NCBI RefSeq assembly: GCF_041886205.1
Contig: NZ_CP169029.1
Reading direction: 5' to 3' (one strand)
Source of the DNA: Escherichia coli
GTDB taxonomy: Bacteria; Pseudomonadota; Gammaproteobacteria; Enterobacterales; Enterobacteriaceae
DNA length: 64,000 bases
Positions 1 through 62,086 of the stretch are shown piece after piece (the stretch's first letter is position 1; the number at the start of each line of letters is the position of its first letter). The position numbers were made by a program, and so were the translations under genes. Below the pieces are notes generated by a model. That model was not told the DNA's origin, ran no database searches, and saw only the letters and a list, made by a program, of their open reading frames with translations.

Positions 1-670
1 ACTCGCCAAGGATTTCTACGTTTAATCCCTGGGAGTTAAACCAGTTAAGCAATTTGCGCCCTAACATTGAACGTCGCCCAGGAATCAAAAGCCGCCGTTC
101 TTCCAGACAAGCCGGGAACGGTTTTTCCGGTGGTGGATTTGTACACCAGAAACTCACGCCACATTCGCCAATTCTCACGGAGAACAGGCCTTCCTGCTGC
201 GTAGAATCTATCGGACAGTCGGAAATGATCATATCCAGTTTATGCTGGCTTAATTGCTCCAGCAGCATTTCGTGGGTGGATTCGAAGCAGCGAAGATGAA
301 TCGGCTCGCCTTCTACTACTGCAGCATTCAGCACGCTACTGACCAGACGTTTGGAAAGTGCATCAGCCACGCCAACGTCAAACAATAAATTGGATTCTTT
401 GCGATAGTTCACGATATCCAGCATTTCCTGGCTTAAGGTGAACATTTTATCGGCATAGCGATAGACCAGCTCTCCCAGCTCGCTGGGTTCGAGACCACGT
501 CCCTTGCGCTTAAATAATTTGCCTTGCAGGCGCTCTTCCAGAGCCCGGATCTGTCCGGTAATGGTTTGTGGTGTCAAATAAAGCGCCTCCGCTGCGCCAA
601 CCACGGAACCTTCTTTATAAACATGCCAGAAGTAATACAAGTGGTTGTAATTGATATGAGACATGCTCAT
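1..670 (-). CDS. nhaR: NhaR, LysR-family activator of nhaA (3' end cut by window edge)
   Basis: Minus-strand ATG at 670 reads [49 protein letters not shown]... and runs off the window start; lies 59 bp downstream of nhaA. Confidence 0.9.
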
Positions 671-729
671 TTCTCTCCCTGATAACAATGAAAAGGGAGC
701 CGTTTATGGCTCCCCGGTAAACCGTCCTG

Positions 730-1896
730 TCACACTGATGGACGCAAACGAACGCGTAACCAGCTGTATCCAATTACCGCCGAAGAGATAGAACCGACCA
801 GGATACCGAGTTTCGCCCAGTTAATCAGTTCTGGATCTACGCTACCAAAGGCCAGGCTGGCAATAAAGATAGACATAGTAAAACCGATACCGCACAGGAT
901 CCCCACCGCCATAATTTGCTGATAAGTCGTTCCCTCAGGCAGATGCGCCAGTTTCAAACGCAGCGCCAACCAGCAGAACAGACTAATCCCCAGCGGTTTG
1001 CCAATCAGCAAACCAGCGATGATCCCCAATGGCAGAATGGAGGTCAAGCCATCCAGCGTGACACCTTGCAGTGAAACGCCAGCATTAGCAAATGCAAACA
1101 GTGGCAAAATCAAATATGCCACCCACGGGTGCAACACATGCTCCAGTCGCTTCGCTGGAGAACGCCCATGCTTCTCTTTCAAAGGAATAAAGAAGCCGAC
1201 AATTACCCCAGCCAGGGTTGCGTGAACCCCCGATTTCAACACTGCAGTCCACAACACCACGCCAACCAGAATATAGACGCCCGTGCGGCGTACACCACAC
1301 AGATTCAATACCGCGAGTACCGCAATTGCTACAGCCGCGACGCCAAGAGAGGCCATCGATAAGTCATTAGTGTAGAACAATGCGATGATAATGATGGCCC
1401 CAAGATCGTCGATAATAGCCAGAGCCATCAAAAAGATCTTCAGCGCTAACGGAACACGACTTCCCAATAGCGCCAGCACACCAAGTGCAAAAGCAATGTC
1501 AGTCGCCGCCGGGATCGCCCACCCTTCGCGGGTAATCGGATCGGCATAGTTAAAAGCCAGATAGAGTAATGCCGGCACAATCATCCCACCAATAGCGGCG
1601 ATAACTGGAAATGCGGCCTGGCGTAAGCTGGCTAGCGATCCTTGCATCAGTTCACGTTTAACTTCCAGACCGACTAACAGGAAAAATACCGCCATCAGCG
1701 CGTCATTTATCCATAACAGCATGTTTTTGTTGATTTCGAGTGAACCAACCCGGAGCTGAACCGGCGTCTCCAGAAAGTCGTGATACCATCCACTGGTTGC
1801 GCCGCTGTTGGCCATCATCATCGCCAGGATAGCGGCAATGATAAGAATAATGCCTCCCGAGGCATCACTGCTAAAGAATCGATGCAGATGTTTCAC
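730..1896 (-). CDS. nhaA: Na+/H+ antiporter NhaA
   Basis: 388-aa [44 protein letters not shown]...; initiator at 1896 is GTG on the minus strand; polytopic membrane protein. Confidence 0.96.
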
Positions 1897-2147
1897 TTTT
1901 TATTTCTCTTTCAGGTGAATAGATCGTTTTTACTATTTTACCCCGCACGAATCATCGTTAAAATCAGATTATAGTGTAGGAATAATTCGTTTTTTACGAA
2001 CCAATGAAGGATTTGTGCCATCAGCGATGAGATGAGTTTTTGACGGCTGTAAGCGCTAACGGGTGACCCTAAGCCCTGATAATCATAGCTTAAGGTCAGG
2101 ATTTCTGAGGGATTAATTAGGAAAAGTAATAATAAAATCGCACTATG

Positions 2148-3392
2148 CTATAGCTGTTTATTCCAGAGATGCTTGAAAATATCTAATGTTGAGACAACAT
2201 TGGCAGGCGACATTCGGTTTAATGAGGGTAGAAAGGGATGAGCCTCCAGGAAGTTGATAAAACGAGTCGCGCTTGCCAACGTCGAATTCCGCATTTCATT
2301 TGCTTTCTTGTTTCCTGTAAGGTTACAAACAGCCATTGAATAATCACGGGCGGAAAATGCACGCCAGACATTATTTCTCACGCCACCACTCAAAAATAAC
2401 CGCGGCGGCGTATCATAATGAGTCGTTTTCTCGCCGCGCTCTTTCACAAAGGAAATATGGCACCGGCCTTGATGAATATGCTGCAAATTAGCCATCAGAC
2501 AACCGCCTAATATAAAGCACTCGTTATCAAGGTAGTGTTGAATATTTATAGAATATCCTTCAGTCAGTACTCTAACCAGTTCAAAATGGCGATACGCCGG
2601 AAGAACCGGTTTCACCAGCATCCCCGGATCGTTTTGATGTAATATCGCCCGACCATAATCAATATCAAATAAGGTATCACGCCGCATAGTAAGTAACTCC
2701 TTGCGTTGTACGTGATGCGCCAGTGTACCTGGAGACAAACGCTCTTCATAACTTGATGCATACTGATAATGCGACTCTACCGCTGATGGAGAATAATTTG
2801 TTGAAATAGCGACAACTCTACCGCTTTGTTCTTCTGTGGTAACAAGACTATAAAGATAGTTATTACTACCGTTAAACTTTACGCGAAAAGCACGGGTAGC
2901 TAGAGAAATATCAGAAGCAGAAGAGTACTGGCGACTTTCTTTATAGTTTACTTCCCGGGCTAGTTTTATCAATTCACGGTTAAGCCCTGTGCTATTAAGA
3001 AGTAATAATTTACGGATATCAGCAAGTGAAGCACCTTGCTCAATCATCAATGCTAACTGTGTTCTTCGCGGCGTTGTATTTACATGATCCAGAGTGATAA
3101 ATGTTCTGGAACAATGATGACAATACATTCTCCTCTGCCCTTGAGCTGAATAACCATACTTTTTCAGAGATGTGCTTCCGCAAGCTGAACATTGTGGAAC
3201 CAACCCTCGCCATGAATGATTAACACGATTACGATAAATATTAAGAGATCGTTCAGATATCACAGGAAAAAAGTAACCGCATTCCCGACATAAAATATTT
3301 TTGCCTTGTGCAATATAATCCTGGCTATTCAACAATCCCAAGTTTTTGCATCCTGGTGTTTTGCAACAATCAACATTTACGTTGGTAAACAT
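2148..3392 (-). CDS. Cys-rich hypothetical protein with N-terminal zinc-ribbon motifs (C-x2-C...C-x2-C, InsA/IS1595-like) and a possible HTH; function unknown
   Basis: ORF track 2148..3428 (426 aa); internal ATG at 3392 (MFTNVNVDCCKTPGC...) has a GGGAG Shine-Dalgarno 5 nt upstream so is the preferred start; motifs CRECG and CSACG-x20-CHHCSRTF; AT-rich codon usage. Confidence 0.6.
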   Translation of the reverse strand: MFTNVNVDCCKTPGCKNLGLLNSQDYIAQGKNILCRECGYFFPVISERSLNIYRNRVNHSWRGLVPQCSACGSTSLKKYGYSAQGQRRMYCHHCSRTFITLDHVNTTPRRTQLALMIEQGASLADIRKLLLLNSTGLNRELIKLAREVNYKESRQYSSASDISLATRAFRVKFNGSNNYLYSLVTTEEQSGRVVAISTNYSPSAVESHYQYASSYEERLSPGTLAHHVQRKELLTMRRDTLFDIDYGRAILHQNDPGMLVKPVLPAYRHFELVRVLTEGYSINIQHYLDNECFILGGCLMANLQHIHQGRCHISFVKERGEKTTHYDTPPRLFLSGGVRNNVWRAFSARDYSMAVCNLTGNKKANEMRNSTLASATRFINFLEAHPFLPSLNRMSPANVVSTLDIFKHLWNKQL

Positions 3393-3429
3393 ATTCACTC
3401 CCTGCGAATATCCGGATATTATCGTCATA

Positions 3430-3473
3430 CGTCAAAGAAAAGAACCTGATTCAATGTGTAACATTGAATCAGG
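3430..3473 (-). terminator. Probable intrinsic terminator downstream of the sulfatase gene
   Basis: Perfect 12-bp inverted repeat cctgattcaatg/cattgaatcagg (3445-3473) with 5-nt loop, followed on the minus strand by TTCTTTTCTTT. Confidence 0.5.
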
Positions 3474-3521
3474 CGGGCATAGCCCTGAAAGGCATACATT
3501 ACATTTATTATGGTTATCAGA

Positions 3522-5015
3522 TTAGCCCCAGGTTACCGCTTCCGGTTTATCACCTCTGGCTTTCATTAATGAATCATTATCAATATCGGCTTTATATTTT
3601 AAGAACTTACCATACATTTGTTTTTCAATGTCTGGATTTTTACCTATCTGATTAATAGTCTCAAAACGATCGGTTTTGAGGTTATATAGGTACTTTGGCT
3701 TATTGTTACGATCGATGATCATTTTCCAGTCACCATCACGTATCGCCCATTCGTCGGTTGGATCATCCTGGAATGGCATGTCAATTCCGAAGATTAATGG
3801 CTTTTCACGTTTTAGCGCTTTGTTCTCAAGGACAGGAACCAACGATTCGCCATCAAAAGTGCGGTCCGTCGGTAATTTGAAGTTCATCATTTTCGCCAGC
3901 GTAGGCATCCAGTCCAGACCATAAACTGGCGTATCTGAAACCATTCCCTTTGGAAGATGTTTACCGTATTTAATAATTGCCGGAACACGGATGCCGCCTT
4001 CCCAAAGATTATCCTTGCGACCACGTAATCCATCAGTTTCACCTGCCAAATTCAGTTCATAAACTTTGCGTGCTTCACGCGTTACTGGGCCGTTGTCACT
4101 GGTAAAAATTATGATGGTGTTATCTTCTTCACCCATCGCTTTAATTTTATCCAGCACTTTTCCAACCTGAGCATCCAGATAACTGATGTTGGCATAATAT
4201 TCTCCTGTACCACGCCAGGGTTTATCCGCCCAGTCGCCATAAAATAAATCAGGATGCTGCTTCTGATATTCGCTCATATATTGTGAGTACATGTCGAGGT
4301 ATTTTTTGGGCGAAGCCAGGGGACTATGTACTTCGGTAAAAGCGACATAAAGGAAGAAAGGCTTACTGTCCTTTTTGTTATCCAACCAGTTAACAACTTC
4401 CGAACTGACATACTCACCACTCATTTTATCGGAACGTGGCGTTGGTTGCCCGTTACGCAACCAACCCGTTGGATAGACCATGCCAAAACGGGGACGCTCC
4501 TTCGCATTATCCAGAGTAGCGTCGGTAACAAAACCCGCCGTATTAACCAGTGAGTAATCAAAGCCCATATCTTTTGCCTGCGGCTGATCGGTGCGATCGC
4601 CGCCTGCATTCAGATGCAGCTTACCCATCATGGCCGTGTCGTACCCTTGCGCTTTGAGTAGATTAGCAATCGTGAGTTCATTACGCCCTAATGCCACATC
4701 TTTTCCCGTTGGGATCCATGAGCGTATGCCAGTACGAAATGGCATCCGCCCTGTTAATAGTCCCGCCCGTGAAGGAGAACTTAAGGGGGCAGGTGCATAG
4801 TAGTCGGTAAATTTGACGCCTTCCCGGGCAAGCCTGTCTATATTGGGCGTTTTAACGATCTGATGTCCATATGTTGCCAAATCACCATACCCTAAATCAT
4901 CCGCCATAATGATGACTAAATTGGGTTGTTTAGTCTCGGCGGCTACGGCTGGATTAAAAGCATTCCCTGTGCAAACTGCAAGGCCGATCAAACTGGCCAT
5001 TAATGTTTTCTGCAT
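3522..5015 (-). CDS. Secreted sulfatase (arylsulfatase family), Ser-type active-site motif
   Basis: ORF track 3522..5051; ATG at 5015 with AGGA 6 nt upstream gives MQKTLMASLIGLAVCTGNAFNPAVAAE signal peptide; N-terminal DDLGYGD metal-binding motif and SSPSRAGLLTGR formylglycine signature with Ser in the modified position. Confidence 0.85.
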   Translation of the reverse strand: MQKTLMASLIGLAVCTGNAFNPAVAAETKQPNLVIIMADDLGYGDLATYGHQIVKTPNIDRLAREGVKFTDYYAPAPLSSPSRAGLLTGRMPFRTGIRSWIPTGKDVALGRNELTIANLLKAQGYDTAMMGKLHLNAGGDRTDQPQAKDMGFDYSLVNTAGFVTDATLDNAKERPRFGMVYPTGWLRNGQPTPRSDKMSGEYVSSEVVNWLDNKKDSKPFFLYVAFTEVHSPLASPKKYLDMYSQYMSEYQKQHPDLFYGDWADKPWRGTGEYYANISYLDAQVGKVLDKIKAMGEEDNTIIIFTSDNGPVTREARKVYELNLAGETDGLRGRKDNLWEGGIRVPAIIKYGKHLPKGMVSDTPVYGLDWMPTLAKMMNFKLPTDRTFDGESLVPVLENKALKREKPLIFGIDMPFQDDPTDEWAIRDGDWKMIIDRNNKPKYLYNLKTDRFETINQIGKNPDIEKQMYGKFLKYKADIDNDSLMKARGDKPEAVTWG

Positions 5016-5034
5016 AATTATTCCTTTATGAAAA

Positions 5035-5796
5035 TTAGAAATCATAACCAAGCATATAAATCATTTGATCGCCAAAACCATCGTAGCCTAACTTATTATC
5101 GAAATAACGCCACGTCACACTGGCTTTCCAGCGAGGACAGAACTTCCAGGCAACTGTTAAACCGCCATTTAGCCCATTCCGACCAAATTGTTGTTCCGCA
5201 TAGGCATCATTTCTGTCCAGTTCTATTTCATTCCAGTTAGATAAAACAAATTTTTCGTCAAATAACGTAAAAGGTAATACTGCTGTCCAACCAACAACAT
5301 AACCATTCCAGCCATTTGTTTGACCATATTTGGCTGAGACATAGTCTCCAGATTGATTATGTAATCCTATATACGGTTTAAAAAATCCCCACGAACCATT
5401 CCAGCCGAGGTAGCCCAAGCCATAAAACATATCAAGATCGTCACCCCATGAGTTATCCCATTGACCATAGATCTTGCCAAAGAAAGTCATATCGGAGTCA
5501 AAAAGTCTGACATGTGTCATAGCAGAAACGGTATGATTACGCCCCGCTACGGCATGGTTAAGCACATTGCTTTCATAAAATGAGTAAAACTCGGCTTCTT
5601 TAAAATTCACACCAAAGTCCGCAGTCACTTTCCATACTTCACCACGGTGAGTGTTAACGAAGCCACTATTCCAGTCAGCATAACCTGCATTTATTGAGCC
5701 AAAGGAACCTTTATATTCTAATGAAGAATATGCAGGAAGATGATAGATAATCGTTGTCAGGGCACACGCAATAAGAAGCCGTCTTTTGGCAGACAT
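5035..5796 (-). CDS. Tsx/OmpK-family outer-membrane channel (nucleoside-channel-like beta-barrel)
   Basis: 253-aa ORF with signal peptide MSAKRRLLIACALTTIIYHLPAYS, aromatic-rich alternating beta-strand pattern, C-terminal ...MLGYDF resembling the Tsx C-terminus; GGAGA RBS upstream of ATG at 5796. Confidence 0.75.
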   Translation of the reverse strand: MSAKRRLLIACALTTIIYHLPAYSSLEYKGSFGSINAGYADWNSGFVNTHRGEVWKVTADFGVNFKEAEFYSFYESNVLNHAVAGRNHTVSAMTHVRLFDSDMTFFGKIYGQWDNSWGDDLDMFYGLGYLGWNGSWGFFKPYIGLHNQSGDYVSAKYGQTNGWNGYVVGWTAVLPFTLFDEKFVLSNWNEIELDRNDAYAEQQFGRNGLNGGLTVAWKFCPRWKASVTWRYFDNKLGYDGFGDQMIYMLGYDF

Positions 5797-6304
5797 ATAA
5801 TATGCTCTCCATTCATTGTTTTTATGTTTCCATAGTATTCAATACATCAGATAATTCATTTTGATTAAGAACGACCCAGAAAGTATATTTAAAGGTGAAT
5901 AGCAAAGCGTGATGAAGATCGCATATTACTTTTACACCAGGGTGTGGAGGTATCGTGTTTCAAAAAGTGTGTCTATTTTAAATATCACTCATTGATTTAT
6001 AGACATTTTTTCCTTATAAAAAACACTAAATTCTGTACAAGAATATTTTGTATCTTCTATTACTTTCTCCAGTAATAACTCACCATCCAGTCATAACTTA
6101 AATCTGCTTGTTCATAATCTTAATTTTTGTAAATGAAAAGGCACATAAGAGTTAAAATAAACAATGAACTAAAGATTAATTATGCAAAAATGCGAGGCGT
6201 CTTCAGGATTAGAATCGATAAAACAGAATGGGTTAAAAAGAGCGATATAATAGCGGCGGGTGCTTGAGGCTATCTGTCTCAGGCATTAGCTGAACGGCAG
6301 ATAG

Positions 6305-6359
6305 AGAAAAGCCCCGAGTGATATTTTACTATCAACCCGAGGCCCCCTATATGCTGAAC
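6305..6359 (-). ncRNA. sokC: sokC antisense RNA of the hokC/mokC type I toxin-antitoxin locus (approximate)
   Basis: Placed by position: antisense to the mokC translation-initiation region as in hok/sok loci; not independently delimited from sequence. Confidence 0.4.
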
Positions 6360-6560
6360 ACATGTAGAGTGCCTCTTACTGACCGTAAGGTCAAGGAGAA
6401 GAGAGCAATGAAGCAGCATAAGGCGATGATTGTCGCCCTGATCGTCATCTGTATCACCGCCGTAGTGGCGGCGCTGGTAACGAGAAAAGACCTCTGTGAG
6501 GTTCACATCCGAACTGGCCAGACGGAGGTTGCTGTTTTCACGGCTTACGAATCCGAGTAA
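6351..6560 (+). CDS. mokC: MokC, overlapping regulatory reading frame of hokC
   Basis: MLNTCRVPLTDRKVKEKRAMKQHKAM... within ORF 6318..6560; shares its stop with hokC. Confidence 0.85.
   Translation: MLNTCRVPLTDRKVKEKRAMKQHKAMIVALIVICITAVVAALVTRKDLCEVHIRTGQTEVAVFTAYESE
6408..6560 (+). CDS. hokC: HokC (Gef) small membrane toxin, type I TA
   Basis: 50-aa MKQHKAMIVALIVICITAVVAALVTRKDLCEVHIRTGQTEVAVFTAYESE. Confidence 0.92.
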   Translation: MKQHKAMIVALIVICITAVVAALVTRKDLCEVHIRTGQTEVAVFTAYESE

Positions 6561-6571
6561 GAGCAACGGCG

Positions 6572-6583
6572 GGGAGTGATCCC
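6572..6583. repeat. Target-site duplication flanking IS186 (left copy)
   Basis: gggagtgatccc immediately outside the left IS end; identical 12-mer at 7921..7932; joined flanks give GGGG-N6-CCCC. Confidence 0.75.
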
Positions 6584-7920
6584 ATAAGCGCTAACTTAAG
6601 GGTTGTGGTATTACGCCTGATATGATTTAACGTGCCGATGAATTACTCTCACGATAACTGGTCAGCAATTCTGGCCCATATTGGTAAGCCCGAAGAACTG
6701 GATACTTCGGCACGTAATGCCGGGGCTCTAACCCGCCGCCGCGAAATTCGTGATGCTGCAACTCTGCTACGTCTGGGGCTGGCTTACGGCCCCGGGGGGA
6801 TGTCATTACGTGAAGTCACTGCATGGGCTCAGCTCCATGACGTTGCAACATTATCTGACGTGGCTCTCCTGAAGCGGCTGCGGAATGCCGCCGACTGGTT
6901 TGGCATACTTGCCGCACAAACACTTGCTGTACGCGCCGCAGTTACGGGTTGTACAAGCGGAAAGAGATTGCGTCTTGTCGATGGAACAGCAATCAGTGCG
7001 CCCGGGGGCGGCAGCGCTGAATGGCGACTACATATGGGATATGATCCTCATACCTGTCAGTTCACTGATTTTGAGCTAACCGACAGCAGAGACGCTGAAC
7101 GGCTGGACCGATTTGCGCAAACGGCAGACGAGATACGCATTGCTGACCGGGGATTCGGTTCGCGTCCCGAATGTATCCGCTCACTTGCTTTTGGAGAAGC
7201 TGATTATATCGTCCGGGTTCACTGGCGAGGATTGCGCTGGTTAACTGCAGAAGGAATGCGCTTTGACATGATGGGTTTTCTGCGCGGGCTGGATTGCGGT
7301 AAGAACGGTGAAACCACTGTAATGATAGGCAATTCAGGTAATAAAAAAGCCGGAGCTCCCTTTCCGGCACGTCTCATTGCCGTATCACTTCCTCCCGAAA
7401 AAGCATTAATCAGTAAAACCCGACTGCTCAGCGAGAATCGTCGAAAAGGACGAGTAGTTCAGGCGGAAACGCTGGAAGCAGCGGGCCATGTGCTATTGCT
7501 AACATCATTACCGGAAGATGAATATTCAGCAGAGCAAGTGGCTGATTGTTACCGTCTGCGATGGCAAATTGAACTGGCTTTTAAGCGGCTCAAAAGTTTG
7601 CTGCACCTGGATGCTTTGCGTGCAAAGGAACCTGAACTCGCGAAAGCGTGGATATTTGCTAATCTACTCGCCGCATTTTTAATTGACGACATAATCCAGC
7701 CATCGCTGGATTTCCCCCCCAGAAGTGCCGGATCCGAAAAGAAGAACTAACTCGTTGTGGAGAATAACAAAAATGGTCATCTGGAGCTTACAGGTGGCCA
7801 TTCGTGGGACAGTATCCCTGACAGCCTACAAAACGCAATTGAAGAACGCGAGGCATCGTCTTAACGAGGCACCGAGGCGTCGCATTCTTCAGATGGTTCA
7901 ACCCTTAAGTTAGCGCTTAT
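6584..7920 (+). mobile_element. IS186 insertion sequence (IS4 family)
   Basis: Terminal inverted repeats ataagcgctaacttaagggttg (left) / caacccttaagttagcgcttat (right); about 1337 bp; encodes InsL; ends uncertain by 1-2 bp. Confidence 0.9.
6638..7750 (+). CDS. insL: IS186 transposase InsL
   Basis: ORF 6632..7750; MNYSHDNWSAILAHIGKPEELDTSARNAGALTRRREIRDAATLLRLG... about 370 aa. Confidence 0.93.
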   Translation: MNYSHDNWSAILAHIGKPEELDTSARNAGALTRRREIRDAATLLRLGLAYGPGGMSLREVTAWAQLHDVATLSDVALLKRLRNAADWFGILAAQTLAVRAAVTGCTSGKRLRLVDGTAISAPGGGSAEWRLHMGYDPHTCQFTDFELTDSRDAERLDRFAQTADEIRIADRGFGSRPECIRSLAFGEADYIVRVHWRGLRWLTAEGMRFDMMGFLRGLDCGKNGETTVMIGNSGNKKAGAPFPARLIAVSLPPEKALISKTRLLSENRRKGRVVQAETLEAAGHVLLLTSLPEDEYSAEQVADCYRLRWQIELAFKRLKSLLHLDALRAKEPELAKAWIFANLLAAFLIDDIIQPSLDFPPRSAGSEKKN

Positions 7921-7932
7921 GGGAGTGATCCC
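7921..7932. repeat. Target-site duplication flanking IS186 (right copy)
   Basis: gggagtgatccc identical to 6572..6583. Confidence 0.75.
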
Positions 7933-7983
7933 CGCCACTTTTCAGGTGCTCGCATATCTTCAACGCACCCTAATTTTACCCAA

Positions 7984-9143: not shown

Positions 9144-9231
9144 CTTTTTTAAATTGCCCCTAGATGAATGCACGGGCGGAGAGGAAATTCCCCTTCGCCC
9201 GTGTCAGTATAATTACCCGTTTATAGGGCGA

Positions 9232-17640: not shown

Positions 17641-17765
17641 TGCCGGATGCGGCGTGAACGCCTTATCCGGCCTACAAAAGCATGCAGATTCAATATATTG
17701 CAGAATTCACGTAGGCCTGATAAGACGCGCCAGCGTCGCATCAGGCGCTGAATGCCGGATTGTTA
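17641..17765. repeat. REP (repetitive extragenic palindromic) cluster
   Basis: gccggatgcggcgtgaacgccttatccggcctac ... gtaggcctgataagacgcgccagcgtcgcatcaggcg in inverted arrangement. Confidence 0.8.
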
Positions 17766-31204: not shown

Positions 31205-31738
<534 letters not shown>

Positions 31739-31740
31739 GA

Positions 31741-31818
31741 CGGATAAGGCGTTCACGCCGCATCCGGCATTCGGTGCACGATGCCTGATGCGACGCTGCC
31801 GCGTCTTATCAGGCCTAC
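31741..31818. repeat. REP element pair
   Basis: ggcgttcacgccgcatccggca ... gcctgatgcgacgctgccgcgtcttatcaggcctac. Confidence 0.8.
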
Positions 31819-36186: not shown

Positions 36187-36350
36187 AATGCCGGATGCGG
36201 CGCGAACGCCTTATCCGGCCTACAAAACCAGCAATTTCAATACGTTGTAAAACTGTAGGCCTGATAAGACGCGGTAAGCGTCGCATCAGGCATTGAGCAC
36301 CGAATGCCGGATACGGCGTGAACGCCTTTTCCGGCCTACAACAGCCTTAG
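36187..36350. repeat. REP cluster (BIME-like) downstream of ettA
   Basis: Three REP units: gccggatgcggcgcgaacgccttatccggcctac, gtaggcctgataagacgcggtaagcgtcgcatcaggc, gccggatacggcgtgaacgccttttccggcctac. Confidence 0.85.
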
Positions 36351-49312: not shown

Positions 49313-49528
49313 ATGCCGGATACGGCCTACGGTTCGGCACAGACTTGTAGGCATGATAAGACGCGACAAGCGTCGCATCAGGCATTGTGCGCCAACTGCC
49401 GGATGCGGCGTGAACGCCTTATCCGGCCTACGGTTCGGCACAAACCTGTAGGCATGATAAGACGCGACAAGCGTCGCATCAGGCATTATGCGCCGACTGC
49501 CGGATGCTGCCTACGAAGGGTAAACTAC
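49313..49528. repeat. Tandemly duplicated REP/BIME unit (about 101-bp period, 2 copies)
   Basis: ctacggttcggcac...gtaggcatgataagacgcgacaagcgtcgcatcaggcatt...gccggatgc at 49327 repeats at 49428 with a few substitutions; fills the spacer between convergent yjjW and yjjV. Confidence 0.85.
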
Positions 49529-57308: not shown

Positions 57309-57395
57309 GCGAAGGTGGCGGAATTGGTAGACGCGCTAGCTTCAGGTGTTAGTGTCCTTACGGACGTGGGGGTTCAAGTCCCCCCCCTCGCACCA
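57309..57395 (+). tRNA. leuQ: tRNA-Leu (anticodon CAG), copy 1
   Basis: GCGAAGGTGGCGGAATTGGTAGACGCGCTAGCTTCAGGTGTTAGTGTCCTTACGGACGTGGGGGTTCAAGTCCCCCCCCTCGCACCA, 87 nt, long variable arm, encoded CCA. Confidence 0.95.
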
Positions 57396-57423
57396 AAAAC
57401 CACGTTGATATTGCTCGCACTGG

Positions 57424-57510
57424 GCGAAGGTGGCGGAATTGGTAGACGCGCTAGCTTCAGGTGTTAGTGTTCTTACGGACGTGGGGGTTCAAGTCCCCCC
57501 CCTCGCACCA
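57424..57510 (+). tRNA. leuP: tRNA-Leu (anticodon CAG), copy 2; one substitution (C to T) in the variable arm versus copies 1 and 3
   Basis: Same 87-nt sequence except GTTAGTGTTCTTACGGAC in place of GTTAGTGTCCTTACGGAC. Confidence 0.95.
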
Positions 57511-57544
57511 AACGAGGCGATATCAAAAAAAGTAAGATGACTGT

Positions 57545-57631
57545 GCGAAGGTGGCGGAATTGGTAGACGCGCTAGCTTCAGGTGTTAGTGTCCTTACGGA
57601 CGTGGGGGTTCAAGTCCCCCCCCTCGCACCA
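57545..57631 (+). tRNA. leuV: tRNA-Leu (anticodon CAG), copy 3
   Basis: Identical to copy 1; ends ...CCCCCCCCTCGCACCA. Confidence 0.95.
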
Positions 57632-58872: not shown

Positions 58873-59550
58873 TTAATAGGGATGCAACACATTACTTGCT
58901 TCGCAATGCCGCATACATAACAGAATATCTGCGGCCTCCAACAACCCTGCATCAGAACTGACGCCCAGTTTCGACATCACATTAAATTTATGTGCACGGA
59001 TCGTTTTGATATTGCGTTTAAGCTGCTCGGCAATTTGTGTCATTGAGTAGCCACGCGACATAAAGCGCAATATTTCTCTCTCCGTCGGGCTTAACGTCCG
59101 GCTTTGGTTAATGTACCACTGATTGTTCAGTCGGTCGGTCGCCTGACGTACACCATTTAATGACAAAAAGAGTTCCTGATGAAAAATCTCCAGCGTTGAC
59201 GCTTTACTTAATACACCGTCCAGCGGTGATGGCGACAATGAACCAATCAGCCGAGCTTCAATATCATCATCCGCAATAACTAAACGCCGGGTACGCGGAA
59301 ACTTAATCGCCAGTTCAGTCAGGCAAGATAATCCCTCTCTGCGCTCACTTCTCATGGCAGAAAAAGAAAAAATGACCGCCGCAAATGAGATCCGCGACAT
59401 GGCATCCTGAAATGACTCCTGACTGGTATAGGTATGGAGCTTATAAGGGTTACCCGCAAACTTTCTGAATAAACTCTCAATACCGATACTGCTCATGACG
59501 CATTTTTCTATGAGTGCGACATTTCTCTTCTTAATTCGGCTGTGTTCCAT
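58873..59550 (-). CDS. bglJ: LuxR-family transcriptional activator BglJ
   Basis: 225-aa [63 protein letters not shown]...; C-terminal LuxR HTH. Confidence 0.93.
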
Positions 59551-60233
59551 TCTGCGGCATCTCCATAAACAGAAGGCAAGTTAAGTTCTCTTGCACCCTG
59601 CGCGCTATTTATCCATGCATACATTTCAGCGTTGCTGTGAATTGCCAGTCGACGCATCGCACTGTTTTTTTGGGCGCTGATAGTTTTATTACTTTTCTTA
59701 AGCAACGAAGCTATCTGGTTGATGCCCCATCCTTTACCTAATAGCCGCAGTACCTTGCGCTCTGAAAGAGTGAGAATGACGGAGCGATAGCTAAAATCAT
59801 GAGTTTCAGTCATTGCCGGAGAGGTCAGCATGGCGCTGATACGCTCTGCGTGCGTATTGCCGGAACGTACGGTCTTGACCAGATTCTCAATGGGTTCAAC
59901 ATCAGACAATAACGTCGCCGTAGGGCACATGAGCAATTCTACTGCCTGGGAATACCAGGAGCGTGACACCATGAAAACCCAGTGAATTTCCCGATATTGT
60001 GAAATTAAAGAATAATAATGCTCACAAACAGAACGTGGATCTTCACTTTCACCGGCTAAATCAGCAATGACTAATCCGGAACGACGTAATTGTAATAAGG
60101 TAAGGTCCTCCGCAGAGGCGCTGGATATTATTTCATATTCAGGGAAGTGAGTCCTCATGACCTCTTTTAACCCTGCTTGCATAACAGGTATTTTACTGAT
60201 AACAATTCCATTTTTGCAGCATCCTGGCAACAT
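59508..60233 (-). CDS. yjjQ: LuxR-family transcriptional regulator YjjQ
   Basis: 241-aa [69 protein letters not shown]...; overlaps bglJ start. Confidence 0.93.
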
Positions 60234-60851
60234 ATTTCCTCCACATCCACTGTCTAAAAATCATGATGGTTTATTCAGGATATTCATTCCTTAAATGTTT
60301 CCAGCAAATTAATAGATTAAGCGAATAAATTATCCTTAGCATTCACTTTCATATCAGCATACTCCTGCTGCACAACAACTCCACTGCATGTGTCAGAAGG
60401 TTAGCATCAAATGATAACCTGGTGAAATAGCCTGGAGACATTTAAAATATCTACATTAAGTTGTTAGGAATACTTAATGAAAAACAGAAATCACATTCAT
60501 TTAATTTATAATTAAATGATATCCCTTCCCGCAGAATGAAAAATCACACAACCAATATTTATTCAATGAAATCTGATGGTTTTAACTTGTTAACATTAAA
60601 AAACGTGCCCGGTTATCTATAATCCTGATTCGTAAAGGCCAAACAATAAATTCATTATAGTGATAATATTCATGTGATAGTTTGTTTGCGGCGAGAGATA
60701 ATTCGCTTTTTATCACCGAGCTTGTCCCGATAACCAGGATTAATCAGCGCAATTTTGATCTTAACCTACCGCAAAACAACCGTGCTTCATGATACAAATG
60801 GATTCTCATTATCTGAACAATACGCAGCACGTCTATGACAAAGGGCGAGTT
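60234..60851. promoter_or_regulatory. About 600-bp AT-rich divergent control region between yjjQ-bglJ and yjjP
   Basis: Markedly AT-rich, non-coding in all frames, with curved-DNA-like A/T tracts; typical of nucleoid-protein-silenced promoter regions. Confidence 0.5.

Positions 60852-62086
<1,235 letters not shown>

Follow-up and report, generated by a model that had tools for sequence, protein, structure and literature searches.

Results

Three genes between nhaA and hokC

The window, by which we mean the whole 64-kb stretch of Escherichia coli DNA analysed here (contig NZ_CP169029.1), carries three intact minus-strand genes between nhaA (730..1896, minus strand), the left core flank, and the hokC/mokC/sokC locus (6258..6561, plus strand), the right flank. 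The genes run from 5796 to 5035 (253 aa), 5015 to 3522 (497 aa) and 3392 to 2148 (414 aa), as an earlier note made from the sequence had read them, and encode a Tsx-fold outer-membrane channel, an S1 sulfatase and a Cys-rich protein, hereafter P3. The RefSeq annotation of a 99.8% identical strain contains these same genes. The right flank was recognised by an Rfam sok match (122 bits at 6258-6410), and mokC is a 153-nt CDS in the RefSeq annotation, the equivalent of 6408-6560.

Alignment by blastn showed BL21 to be colinear with the window over 1-2133 and again over 6185-6605. The segment between these junctions (2134..6184, 4051 bp, unstranded) is replaced in K-12/BL21-type DNA by ~125 bp of unrelated AT-rich sequence, for a net gain over BL21 of 3.9 kb. 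This is the excess that the earlier note had estimated relative to K-12, and K-12-type DNA indeed fails to align through the interval. The segment is also AT-richer than its surroundings, as had been judged by eye: in 500-bp windows, GC is 0.31-0.45 across most of 2000-6250, compared to 0.50-0.57 in the flanks, with an internal peak of 0.49 midway through the sulfatase gene. The 4051 bp themselves are mostly 37-45% GC. The segment and the core yjjQ-bglJ region have the lowest GC in the window.

The hallmarks of a horizontally acquired island were not seen. There is no integrase or active transposase in the region and no tRNA gene nearby to serve as a target, and no inverted repeats were found flanking either the segment or P3. 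The sole repeat at the junctions is a 13/15 AT-rich direct match (2111-2125 and 6174-6188), which we judge to be a chance match or, at most, microhomology. A remnant of the island in the 125-bp filler of K-12 was looked for and rejected: none of the island-bearing loci contains a match to the filler. A defence or phage reading was rejected, since PADLOC defence models gave 0 families for all three proteins and PHROGs returned only a zinc-ribbon 'transposase' at E 5e-4.

The channel gene

The first gene (5035..5796, minus strand) encodes a 253-aa member of the Tsx/OmpK family of 12-stranded outer-membrane channels and is named OmpK by RefSeq. Pfam Channel_Tsx (PF03502) matches at 5.8e-14, over residues 105-253 only, and the single NCBIfam model that matches scores 123 bits against a cutoff of 282. 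A search of the PDB by sequence gave no match. Fold comparison recovered a 12-stranded beta-barrel whose nearest structure is the nucleoside channel Tsx, and the 12-stranded relatives also include NanC and KdgM, which carry sugars and acids. No inner-membrane transporter is encoded in the module.

A sulfatase with an Escherichia-specific serine

The second gene (3522..5015, minus strand) encodes a 497-aa periplasmic S1 (formylglycine-type) sulfatase that, by inspection, carries a signal peptide at its N-terminus. Pfam Sulfatase (PF00884) matches residues 31-378 at 2.1e-58; the family assignments proposed in the earlier note for this protein and for the channel thus both hold. The sulfatase signature, (C/S)-x-P-x-R followed by LTG, is present as S79-S-P-S-R-AGLLTGR, and the motif SSPSR agrees with that note's call of a Ser-type enzyme. 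The best-scoring substrate-defined NCBIfam equivalogs gave 187 bits (arylsulfatase, cutoff 481), 168 bits (choline-sulfatase, cutoff 433) and 95 bits (PehA, cutoff 900). We dropped any substrate assignment, as these scores are far below cutoff and the PDB neighbours other than 3ED4, which are steroid, GalNAc-6, carrageenan and arylsulfatase A enzymes, are equally distant. The entry 3ED4 itself ('putative arylsulfatase from Escherichia coli', New York SGX, unpublished) is the same protein: it aligns over residues 6-497 (492 residues, 1109 bits) at ~95% identity by eye, with SSPSR in both, and represents the other allele class, presumably the B2 type.

Ser79, the formylglycine precursor within APLSSPSR, is encoded by AGT (4779..4781, minus strand). 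Every Escherichia copy has Ser (AGT) as the precursor, compared to Cys (TGT/TGC) in 15 orthologues outside the genus, and Ser79 is one of only 2 changes at 267 columns that are otherwise invariant. As judged from this alignment, the replacement of Cys by Ser at the formylglycine precursor is an Escherichia-specific switch. Ser-type sulfatases are reportedly handled poorly by E. coli.

A maturase gene missing from Escherichia

In other genera a fourth gene separates the sulfatase gene from P3 and encodes an anaerobic sulfatase maturase of the radical-SAM/SPASM type (TIGR03942, 512-528 bits). The gap between these two genes is accordingly ~1.3 kb in 12 loci of other genera, compared to a spacer of 129 bp in the window. 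The pairing of a sulfatase with an adjacent maturase is therefore seen in orthologous loci and is missing from the window, as it is from all Escherichia copies. Neither the ancestral fourth gene nor the Cys-to-Ser change had been noticed in the earlier note. The maturase gene is also absent from the clusters of Klebsiella, Kluyvera and P. massiliensis, indicating that it is dispensable in cis. A cognate maturase elsewhere in E. coli was rejected as well: no orthologue was found in any of 5426 genomes (0/5426), and the only match, ydeM, is 69% identical over just 16% of the query. According to Szameit 1999, as cited in PMC5066984, Ser-type sulfatases require an anaerobic maturase. Given this requirement and the lack of an orthologue in the 5426 genomes, sulfatase activity in Escherichia is uncertain.

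P3 resembles an IS1-type transposase

The product of the third gene (2148..3392, minus strand) is 414 aa long and derived from a transposase; it combines two Cys4 zinc ribbons with a helix-turn-helix and an RNase H-like domain. The zinc ribbons had been recognised from the sequence; the derivation from a transposase had been overlooked. The N-terminus matches the IS1/IS1595 zinc-binding domain NF050000 (30.7 bits, cutoff 28), and P3 also matches the IS1 transposase model NF033558. Its best sequence match in the PDB was not significant (E 0.11); fold comparison assigned the core to the RNase H-like transposase/integrase fold, which completes the IS1/IS1595-type architecture of zinc ribbon and helix-turn-helix followed by an RNase H-like core.

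The DDE triad is not conserved in P3. An alignment of 28 family members contains no invariant Asp or Glu; E/D291 is the only universally acidic column, the position on beta-1 is hydrophobic, and Arg, His and Trp residues are invariant in the family, which also keeps that one acidic residue. P3 likewise lacks the marks of a mobile element, having no terminal inverted repeats and being present in one copy per genome in 1282 genomes. The P3 family counts at least 479 members, and many relatives are auto-named 'IS1 family transposase'. A paralogue at metF-metL goes with a 5'-nucleotidase. Eleven non-orthologous family members adjoin genes for 5'-nucleotidases, purine-nucleoside phosphorylases or nucleoside transporters, and relatives are divergent from, or adjacent to, catabolic genes. 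This recurrent placement beside scavenging and catabolic genes, which is classic for a regulator, together with the fold, suggests that P3 may be a regulator.

Conserved noncoding elements

An intrinsic-terminator hairpin with a 14-bp stem and T-run lies 3' of the sulfatase gene (3434..3474, minus strand), in the 129-bp spacer before P3 where other genera have the maturase gene. It is kept across Escherichia spacers, with a compensatory change of T-A to C-G. A generic promoter scan showed no enrichment over shuffled sequence, and the promoter-like TTGACG-17-GATATT that the consensus scan placed 5' of P3 (3407..3435, minus strand) is not above chance. After this null result, regulatory candidates were taken from conservation between genera.

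Upstream of the channel gene, several noncoding blocks are conserved between genera whose synonymous sites are saturated. A palindrome, TGCGATCTTCATCACG (5908..5923, minus strand), lies in a block kept from Escherichia to Kosakonia and Phytobacter (TGTGATATCTCTATCACA); by eye it resembles the CRP consensus, and we regard it as a candidate site. A candidate -10 hexamer, TATACT (5882..5887, minus strand), falls in a second conserved block (TTTAAATATACT / TTTTTAATAAACT), from which we infer that the centre of the palindrome would lie ~41 nt upstream of the predicted transcription start. A third block, ACA(C/T)TTT(T/C)TGA(A/C)AC (5952..5970, minus strand), is a candidate operator. It lies 5' of the channel gene at 9 loci, among them that of Salmonella arizonae, in which the gene is inverted, and a similar TTCTGAAAG stands beside a perfect TGTGA-N6-TCACA in the intergenic region of a paralogue locus.

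Distribution, synteny and selection

Among 5426 complete E. coli genomes, 1282 (24%) carry the segment, always in one copy and on the chromosome; it was never found on true plasmids or phages. Some copies contain IS insertions. A single, identical K-12-type empty junction is present in 4116 of the 5426. Outside E. coli, the order dnaJ-channel-sulfatase-(maturase)-P3-nhaA-nhaR recurs in E. albertii, E. whittamii, Salmonella arizonae, Citrobacter, Klebsiella, Kluyvera, Kosakonia and Phytobacter, and the genes occupy the same dnaJ-nhaA site in more than 10 genera. The orthologous site is thus filled in other genera, rather than empty as expected for an island. Identities of the cluster proteins rank as those of NhaA do.

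These data strongly support the conclusion that the region is a vertically inherited enterobacterial module and not a new acquisition. The earlier note had called it an insert, a word that the synteny overturns: the module is ancestral and the K-12-type lineage deleted it. The same note's hedge, that this might be ancestral DNA lost from K-12, is borne out strongly by the synteny in more than 10 genera and the one deletion junction in 4116 genomes.

Island alleles of E. coli differ from one another at dS 0.5-0.9, compared to 0.09 for dnaJ. The corresponding dN/dS values across the three genes are 0.03, 0.04 and 0.10, with 0.03 for the sulfatase and 0.10 for P3; within Escherichia, the sulfatase and channel have values of 0.02-0.04. 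Ratios this low at a dS of 0.5-0.9 point to retained function. By this measure, all three genes are kept under purifying selection, which is strong for the sulfatase. The reading frames are intact in the E. coli alleles, in E. whittamii and, for the sulfatase and P3, in E. albertii. The low GC of the cluster persists in every genus and, taken with the deep divergence of the alleles, suggests an unusual history of the locus that may include recombination between lineages.

Discussion

A channel, a sulfatase and a candidate regulator

The anatomy of the locus fits a putative uptake-and-desulfation module. In the model that we favour, the dnaJ-nhaA module is ancestral and was lost, by one 4.05-kb deletion/replacement, in the E. 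coli lineage from which K-12, B, O157 and the majority of other strains descend. Where the module persists, a catabolite-controlled (CRP-type) promoter near 5880 would drive a channel-sulfatase operon ending at the hairpin 3474-3434. A small sulfated solute would enter the periplasm through the Tsx-fold channel, and the Sec-exported S1 sulfatase would take off the sulfate there. P3 would be a domesticated, catalytically degenerate IS1-like transposase that acts as a DNA-binding regulator or sensor of the module. The ancestral operon had its own anaerobic radical-SAM maturase between the sulfatase gene and P3; in the genus Escherichia this gene has gone, and Ser has taken the place of Cys at the precursor. 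The Escherichia enzyme would therefore be either matured in trans, by a paralogous maturase (AslB or YdeM), or independent of formylglycine. We consider this combination of ancestry, one deletion, a CRP-type two-gene operon, a P3 regulator and a lost maturase with Cys-to-Ser replacement to be probable, by a modest measure.

Two alternatives concern the history of the segment. The window's lineage might have acquired it horizontally, as an island landing between nhaA and hokC, which would suit its GC of 41-45% against ~51-55% in the flanks, its patchy presence in E. coli and the multiple gains and losses proposed in PMC4182557; the excess of allele dS over that of dnaJ also fits recombinational import of divergent alleles. 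Against this account, more than 10 genera have these genes at this very site, low GC is a property of the cluster in every genus, and neither integrase, tRNA gene, terminal repeats nor occurrence on true plasmids or phages speaks for it. Moreover, genomes without the island all have a single junction in common, with its own unique 125-bp filler; this is the signature of one deletion and not of many empty sites. We regard acquisition as very unlikely. Only slightly less doubtful is the proposal that the cluster is a decaying remnant in Escherichia, its maturase lost, its sulfatase inactivated by the Cys-to-Ser change and the whole on its way out, as in 76% of E. coli. The change does strike the catalytic precursor, the cognate maturase is absent from 5426 genomes, most E. 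coli lack the region and some copies carry IS insertions. Decay is nevertheless difficult to reconcile with dN/dS of 0.02-0.04 for the sulfatase and channel at such high dS, with intact reading frames in three Escherichia species and with conserved promoter blocks and terminator; clusters of Klebsiella, Kluyvera and P. massiliensis are likewise without the maturase gene. We think it unlikely.

Other alternatives address what the proteins do. A Tsx-type channel could admit a nucleoside- or nucleotide-like ester, which the S1 enzyme would desulfate or attack as a promiscuous phosphoesterase, under a P3-family regulator dedicated to nucleoside scavenging. The resemblance of the channel to Tsx, the 11 P3 relatives beside 5'-nucleotidase, phosphorylase or nucleoside-transporter genes and an UshA-like gene that abuts the channel gene of the Salmonella arizonae cluster are consistent with this idea. 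These are matters of context only: there is no established natural sulfated nucleoside substrate in enterobacteria, the UshA-like neighbours score equally against SoxB and UshA, and the 12-stranded NanC and KdgM carry sugars and acids. We hold nucleoside scavenging to be a minor possibility, one that merits some weight. That P3 is an active transposase, so that the segment or P3 alone is mobile, is in our view extremely improbable. Its N-terminal matches to the IS1/IS1595 zinc-binding domain and IS1 transposase model, its transposase/integrase fold and the names given to its relatives would be expected of such an enzyme, but a conserved DDE triad and terminal inverted repeats would be expected too and are missing. 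A single copy per genome, a syntenic position fixed across genera, a dN/dS of 0.10 and absence from true plasmids and phages also argue against mobility.

Returning to the favoured model, a bolder extension of it is that P3 founds an unrecognised Gammaproteobacteria family of domesticated IS1-like transposases that regulate or sense for periplasmic scavenging genes, and that the rewired Escherichia sulfatase, through cross-maturation by AslB/YdeM or formylglycine-independent action, works on a nucleoside-like sulfate or phosphate ester. We offer this tentatively, and it may well be wrong. If P3 is as proposed, a DDE-fold transposase would here have been domesticated into a host gene, a rare case in bacteria, and its regulon could be tested; our literature search found no precedent for a bacterial domesticated DDE transposase as a regulator. 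A genus-wide Ser-type enzyme that lacks its own maturase would provide a direct handle on which E. coli system makes formylglycine. The locus is also a clean two-haplotype polymorphism, pairing one deletion junction with deeply diverged intact alleles. Around nhaA, these haplotypes mark the division of B2 from non-B2 strains, which PMC4182557 links to extra-intestinal virulence.

Relation to known systems

The island itself is already known, a point missed in the earlier note: over 1200 genomes have it annotated, its sulfatase has a crystal structure (PDB 3ED4), and its variability is on record in the literature. Lescat et al. 2014 (PLoS One, PMC4182557) reported a low-GC 'putative cerebroside sulfatase' module, variable among E. 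coli phylogroups, and proposed horizontal acquisition. Theirs is the same segment, between the hokC module and nhaAR. That study contains no gene analysis and favours acquisition, whereas cross-genus synteny and one empty junction lead us to ancestry plus one deletion. Literature on the locus tags STM0035-38 and c0020-22 yielded nothing on function, and that on acid-inducible sulfatase yielded no usable link to the module.

Tsx (PDB 1TLW) and Vibrio OmpK are the closest counterparts of the channel, which is only 15% identical to Tsx. Tsx stands alone, in contrast to the window channel, which is grouped with a sulfatase in a proposed co-transcribed unit. P3 shares with the IS1-family transposases (InsAB') a zinc ribbon and helix-turn-helix followed by an RNase H-like core; within that family we take the long single-ORF ISMhu11-like group as its comparison group. 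P3 differs from IS1 transposases in its extra N-terminal zinc ribbon, its lack of a conserved DDE triad and of inverted repeats, and its single copy, fixed position and purifying selection. Finally, Klebsiella atsBA and E. coli aslA-aslB and ydeN-ydeM each pair a periplasmic S1 sulfatase with a radical-SAM/SPASM enzyme that converts Cys or Ser to formylglycine. The orthologous clusters of Salmonella, Citrobacter, Kosakonia and other genera have this same pairing. The Escherichia module departs from it in having the Ser form without a maturase gene, accompanied by a Tsx-type channel and a transposase-derived protein.

A chromosomal three-gene module between nhaA and hokC

The interval between nhaA and hokC carries three co-oriented genes on the minus strand, encoding a Tsx/OmpK-type channel (5796..5035), a sulfatase (5015..3522) and a third protein, P3 (3392..2148). 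The open reading frames lie where the earlier note had placed them and agree with the gene models that RefSeq gives for a strain of 99.8% identity. Its family calls were also upheld: the channel matches Channel_Tsx (5.8e-14) and the sulfatase matches Sulfatase PF00884 (2.1e-58) and SGSH_C, both in Pfam. P3, described there as a zinc-ribbon protein, contains an IS1/IS1595 N-terminal zinc-binding domain that scores just over the curated cutoff; it has no significant match in Pfam. As proposed, the segment is AT-richer than its flanks, with a GC content of 0.31-0.45 over most of 2000-6250 versus 0.50-0.57 (500-bp windows).

BL21 aligns colinearly with window positions 1-2133 and again with 6185-6605. 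Between these blocks, 4051 bp in the window replace approximately 125 bp of AT-rich BL21 DNA, so the predicted excess over a K-12-type strain is real. In comparisons with island-bearing loci, this 125-bp filler showed no similarity to any of them. The flanks of the cluster lack a tRNA gene, an integrase and terminal repeats. A 15-nt AT-rich direct repeat (GATTAATTAGGAAAA / GATTAATTATGCAAA, 13/15 matching, positions 2111-2125 and 6174-6188) lies just inside or at both deletion junctions; it may have served as microhomology for the deletion or may simply have arisen by chance.

Elsewhere in the window, an IS186/IS421 element between hokC and dnaJ (6568-7936) occupies the same site as in BL21 in the opposite orientation (BL21 locus L001, 4012-2644); strains lacking the island include both orientations. 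Rfam matches comprise three naRNA4 elements (CssrE, REP-type; 77 bits each; 31738-31815, 36258-36336, 49350-49428), tpke11 just upstream of dnaJ (9144-9221) and ES036 (17676-17718). Three tandem tRNA-Leu(CAG) genes are located at 57309-57631. The second low-GC stretch of the window (0.42; 59000-61000) is the core yjjQ-bglJ region, which was rejected as an island because it is present in 5327 of 5426 genomes.

Synteny points to ancestral DNA

Scanning an alignment of P3 proteins against one genome per species yielded 20 loci, whose gene order was established by tblastn with the window's proteins. The order dnaJ-channel-sulfatase-P3-nhaA-nhaR is found in E. albertii, E. whittamii, a cryptic Escherichia, Kosakonia, three Phytobacter species and an uncultured enterobacterium, and the sulfatase-P3-nhaA-nhaR portion is also kept in Salmonella arizonae, four Citrobacter and two Klebsiella. 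Of these, the Salmonella, three Citrobacter and one Klebsiella locus have a channel gene in inverted orientation and with greater divergence (~56-58% identity). The ranking of loci by cluster-protein identity follows that by NhaA identity. Close P3 relatives occur on chromosomes only, the "plasmid" matches being records of 0.8-4.9 Mb. In every genus the GC3 of the cluster is 10-25 points below that of its flanks; low GC thus characterises the locus throughout and does not signal a recent arrival. Conserved dnaJ-nhaA synteny across genera and a single shared empty junction bear out the alternative raised in the earlier note, that this is ancestral DNA lost from K-12 rather than a new acquisition. 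The note's reading was otherwise essentially right too.

Two ORFs of 580 and 572 aa (L008, 11348-13090 and 2404-4122) flank the Salmonella arizonae version of the cluster and have no NCBIfam match. The former lies between P3 and nhaA, and two Citrobacter loci (L009 and L011) have a similar 2-kb gap. The Citrobacter amalonaticus cluster (L022, 6484-11224) sits ~4 kb upstream of dnaJ, not between dnaJ and nhaA. Its P3 is only 34% identical, and its channel and sulfatase genes, each matching in two tblastn pieces, may be frameshifted. This cluster is possibly a second copy, decaying or transferred.

A lost maturase and a Cys-to-Ser switch

In 12 non-Escherichia loci, the sulfatase gene and P3 lie ~1.3 kb apart. 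In the two examined, this gap contains an anaerobic sulfatase maturase (TIGR03942, 528 and 512 bits; cutoff 349) whose gene ends 18-21 nt before P3. The spacer is only 129-154 bp in all Escherichia loci, and holds a strong terminator hairpin that is conserved across the genus with a compensatory stem change. No orthologue of this maturase was found anywhere in complete E. coli genomes, where only ydeM matches (~69% over 16% of the query).

At the formylglycine precursor position, all six Escherichia copies encode Ser (AGT), as against Cys (TGT or TGC) in 15/15 other orthologues. Those 15 share 267 invariant columns, of which Escherichia has fixed a change at just two, C79S and G193P. Since Klebsiella, Kluyvera and Phytobacter massiliensis lack the maturase gene yet keep Cys, gene loss is recurrent and the Ser switch is unique to Escherichia. 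A Klebsiella Ser-type sulfatase needs AtsB for formylglycine formation (Szameit 1999, as cited in PMC5066984). The Escherichia sulfatase might be matured in trans by AslB or YdeM.

P3, a probable domesticated transposase

A profile search over 1.84 billion representatives recovered 479 P3 relatives, 110 of them at E 1e-10 or better and some full-length (400-520 aa). AFDB relatives belong to Vibrio, Photobacterium, Proteus, Serratia and Atlantibacter, and frequently carry the automatic name "IS1 family transposase". The zinc-ribbon cysteines, Y26, G80, R238, H269 and W343 are invariant in a set of 28 diverse members. The only always-acidic column is E/D291, just after beta-4, and the beta-1 position expected to hold the first catalytic Asp is hydrophobic. 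Its single copy, fixed genomic position, lack of terminal repeats and dN/dS of 0.10 mark P3 as a domesticated transposase and not an insertion sequence.

Non-orthologous family members in 12 contexts have one of three types of gene directly beside them, often in divergent orientation: a UshA/SoxB-type 5'-nucleotidase (P0067, P0078, P0098, P0099, and one paralogue each in Salmonella and in E. coli, the latter between metF and metL), a purine-nucleoside phosphorylase (P0072, P0085, P0119, P0126 and a locus of Vibrio campbellii, where the 236-aa neighbour is assigned by size and position only) or a sulfatase maturase (P0063). NupC, a NupG-like transporter or DeoB is close by in two phosphorylase loci, and in Salmonella arizonae a UshA-like gene adjoins the channel gene of the nhaA-side cluster. 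The UshA-like neighbours (L025, L036, L008) match the SoxB thiosulfohydrolase model at 136-156 bits (cutoff 550), about equal to their UshA match, so a nucleotide may not be what they act on. Nucleoside-related neighbours and the Tsx-type channel make a nucleoside-like ester a possible substrate of the module.

The metF-metL locus (L036, 4315-7131, E. coli KE47 chromosome; also L035, Salmonella) is a second variable locus, carried by 1700/5426 E. coli genomes; K-12-type strains lack it. Its P3 paralogue (376 aa, ~25% identical, no NCBIfam family) is transcribed divergently from the UshA-like 5'-nucleotidase gene.

Two non-coding blocks 5' of the channel gene are conserved from Escherichia to Kosakonia and Phytobacter: ACA(C/T)TTT(T/C)TGA(A/C)AC (5970..5952), and a CRP-like palindrome (5923..5908) whose centre lies ~41 nt 5' of the start that a conserved TATACT predicts. 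The former also precedes the inverted channel gene in Salmonella. In the 133-bp intergenic region of the metF-metL locus, which contains a perfect TGTGAGAGTAATCACA, a similar TTCTGAAAG adjoins a perfect TGTGA-N6-TCACA. Given these blocks and the family's neighbours, we propose that P3 could regulate this scavenging module as a transcription factor and that the operon may be under catabolite control.

Two old alleles and two haplotypes

In a comparison of the window allele with the B2 allele, dN/dS is 0.03 for the sulfatase (dS 0.62), 0.04 for the channel (dS 0.53) and 0.10 for P3 (dS 0.89), with 0.017 for nhaA (dS 0.34); dnaJ has a dN of 0 and a dS of 0.09. Low dN/dS across such deep dS indicates that all three island genes are maintained by selection. 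Because island dS values are close to those between E. coli and E. albertii (0.87-0.98), the age of the two alleles is roughly that of splits between species.

The island is present, in single copy and always chromosomal, in 1282/5426 complete E. coli genomes, at identities of >=99% (n=49), 95-99% (n=172), 90-95% (n=10) and 80-90% (n=1051, including ST131, clone D i2 and APEC O2:K1). CFT073 is a carrier, and strain 6EVA is 100% identical to the window. The sulfatase aligns with PDB 3ED4, an unpublished structural-genomics entry ("putative arylsulfatase from E. coli"), over 492 residues (1109 bits, ~95% identity by eye). As a known, annotated and structurally sampled variable module, the island is of low novelty. 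Modest follow-up is warranted for the Cys-to-Ser change that the whole genus carries in the absence of a maturase, for the split into two haplotypes and for the family of domesticated transposases that includes P3.

Lescat et al. (2014; PMC4182557) depicted this stretch, lying between the hokC module and nhaAR, as a module named "putative cerebroside sulfatase"; they noted the region's low GC and inferred repeated gains and losses. The depth of the island alleles extends the nhaA anomaly that they reported. Our reading of the losses differs. A 241-bp query of the K-12-type junction (filler plus both borders) matched 4116 genomes, nearly all at >=95% identity, so that essentially every genome (4116 + 1282 = 5398/5426) has one of two haplotypes. 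This points to one deletion or replacement event, with its product and the intact locus now both segregating, and speaks against numerous independent losses, in contrast to the repeated gains and losses of PMC4182557.
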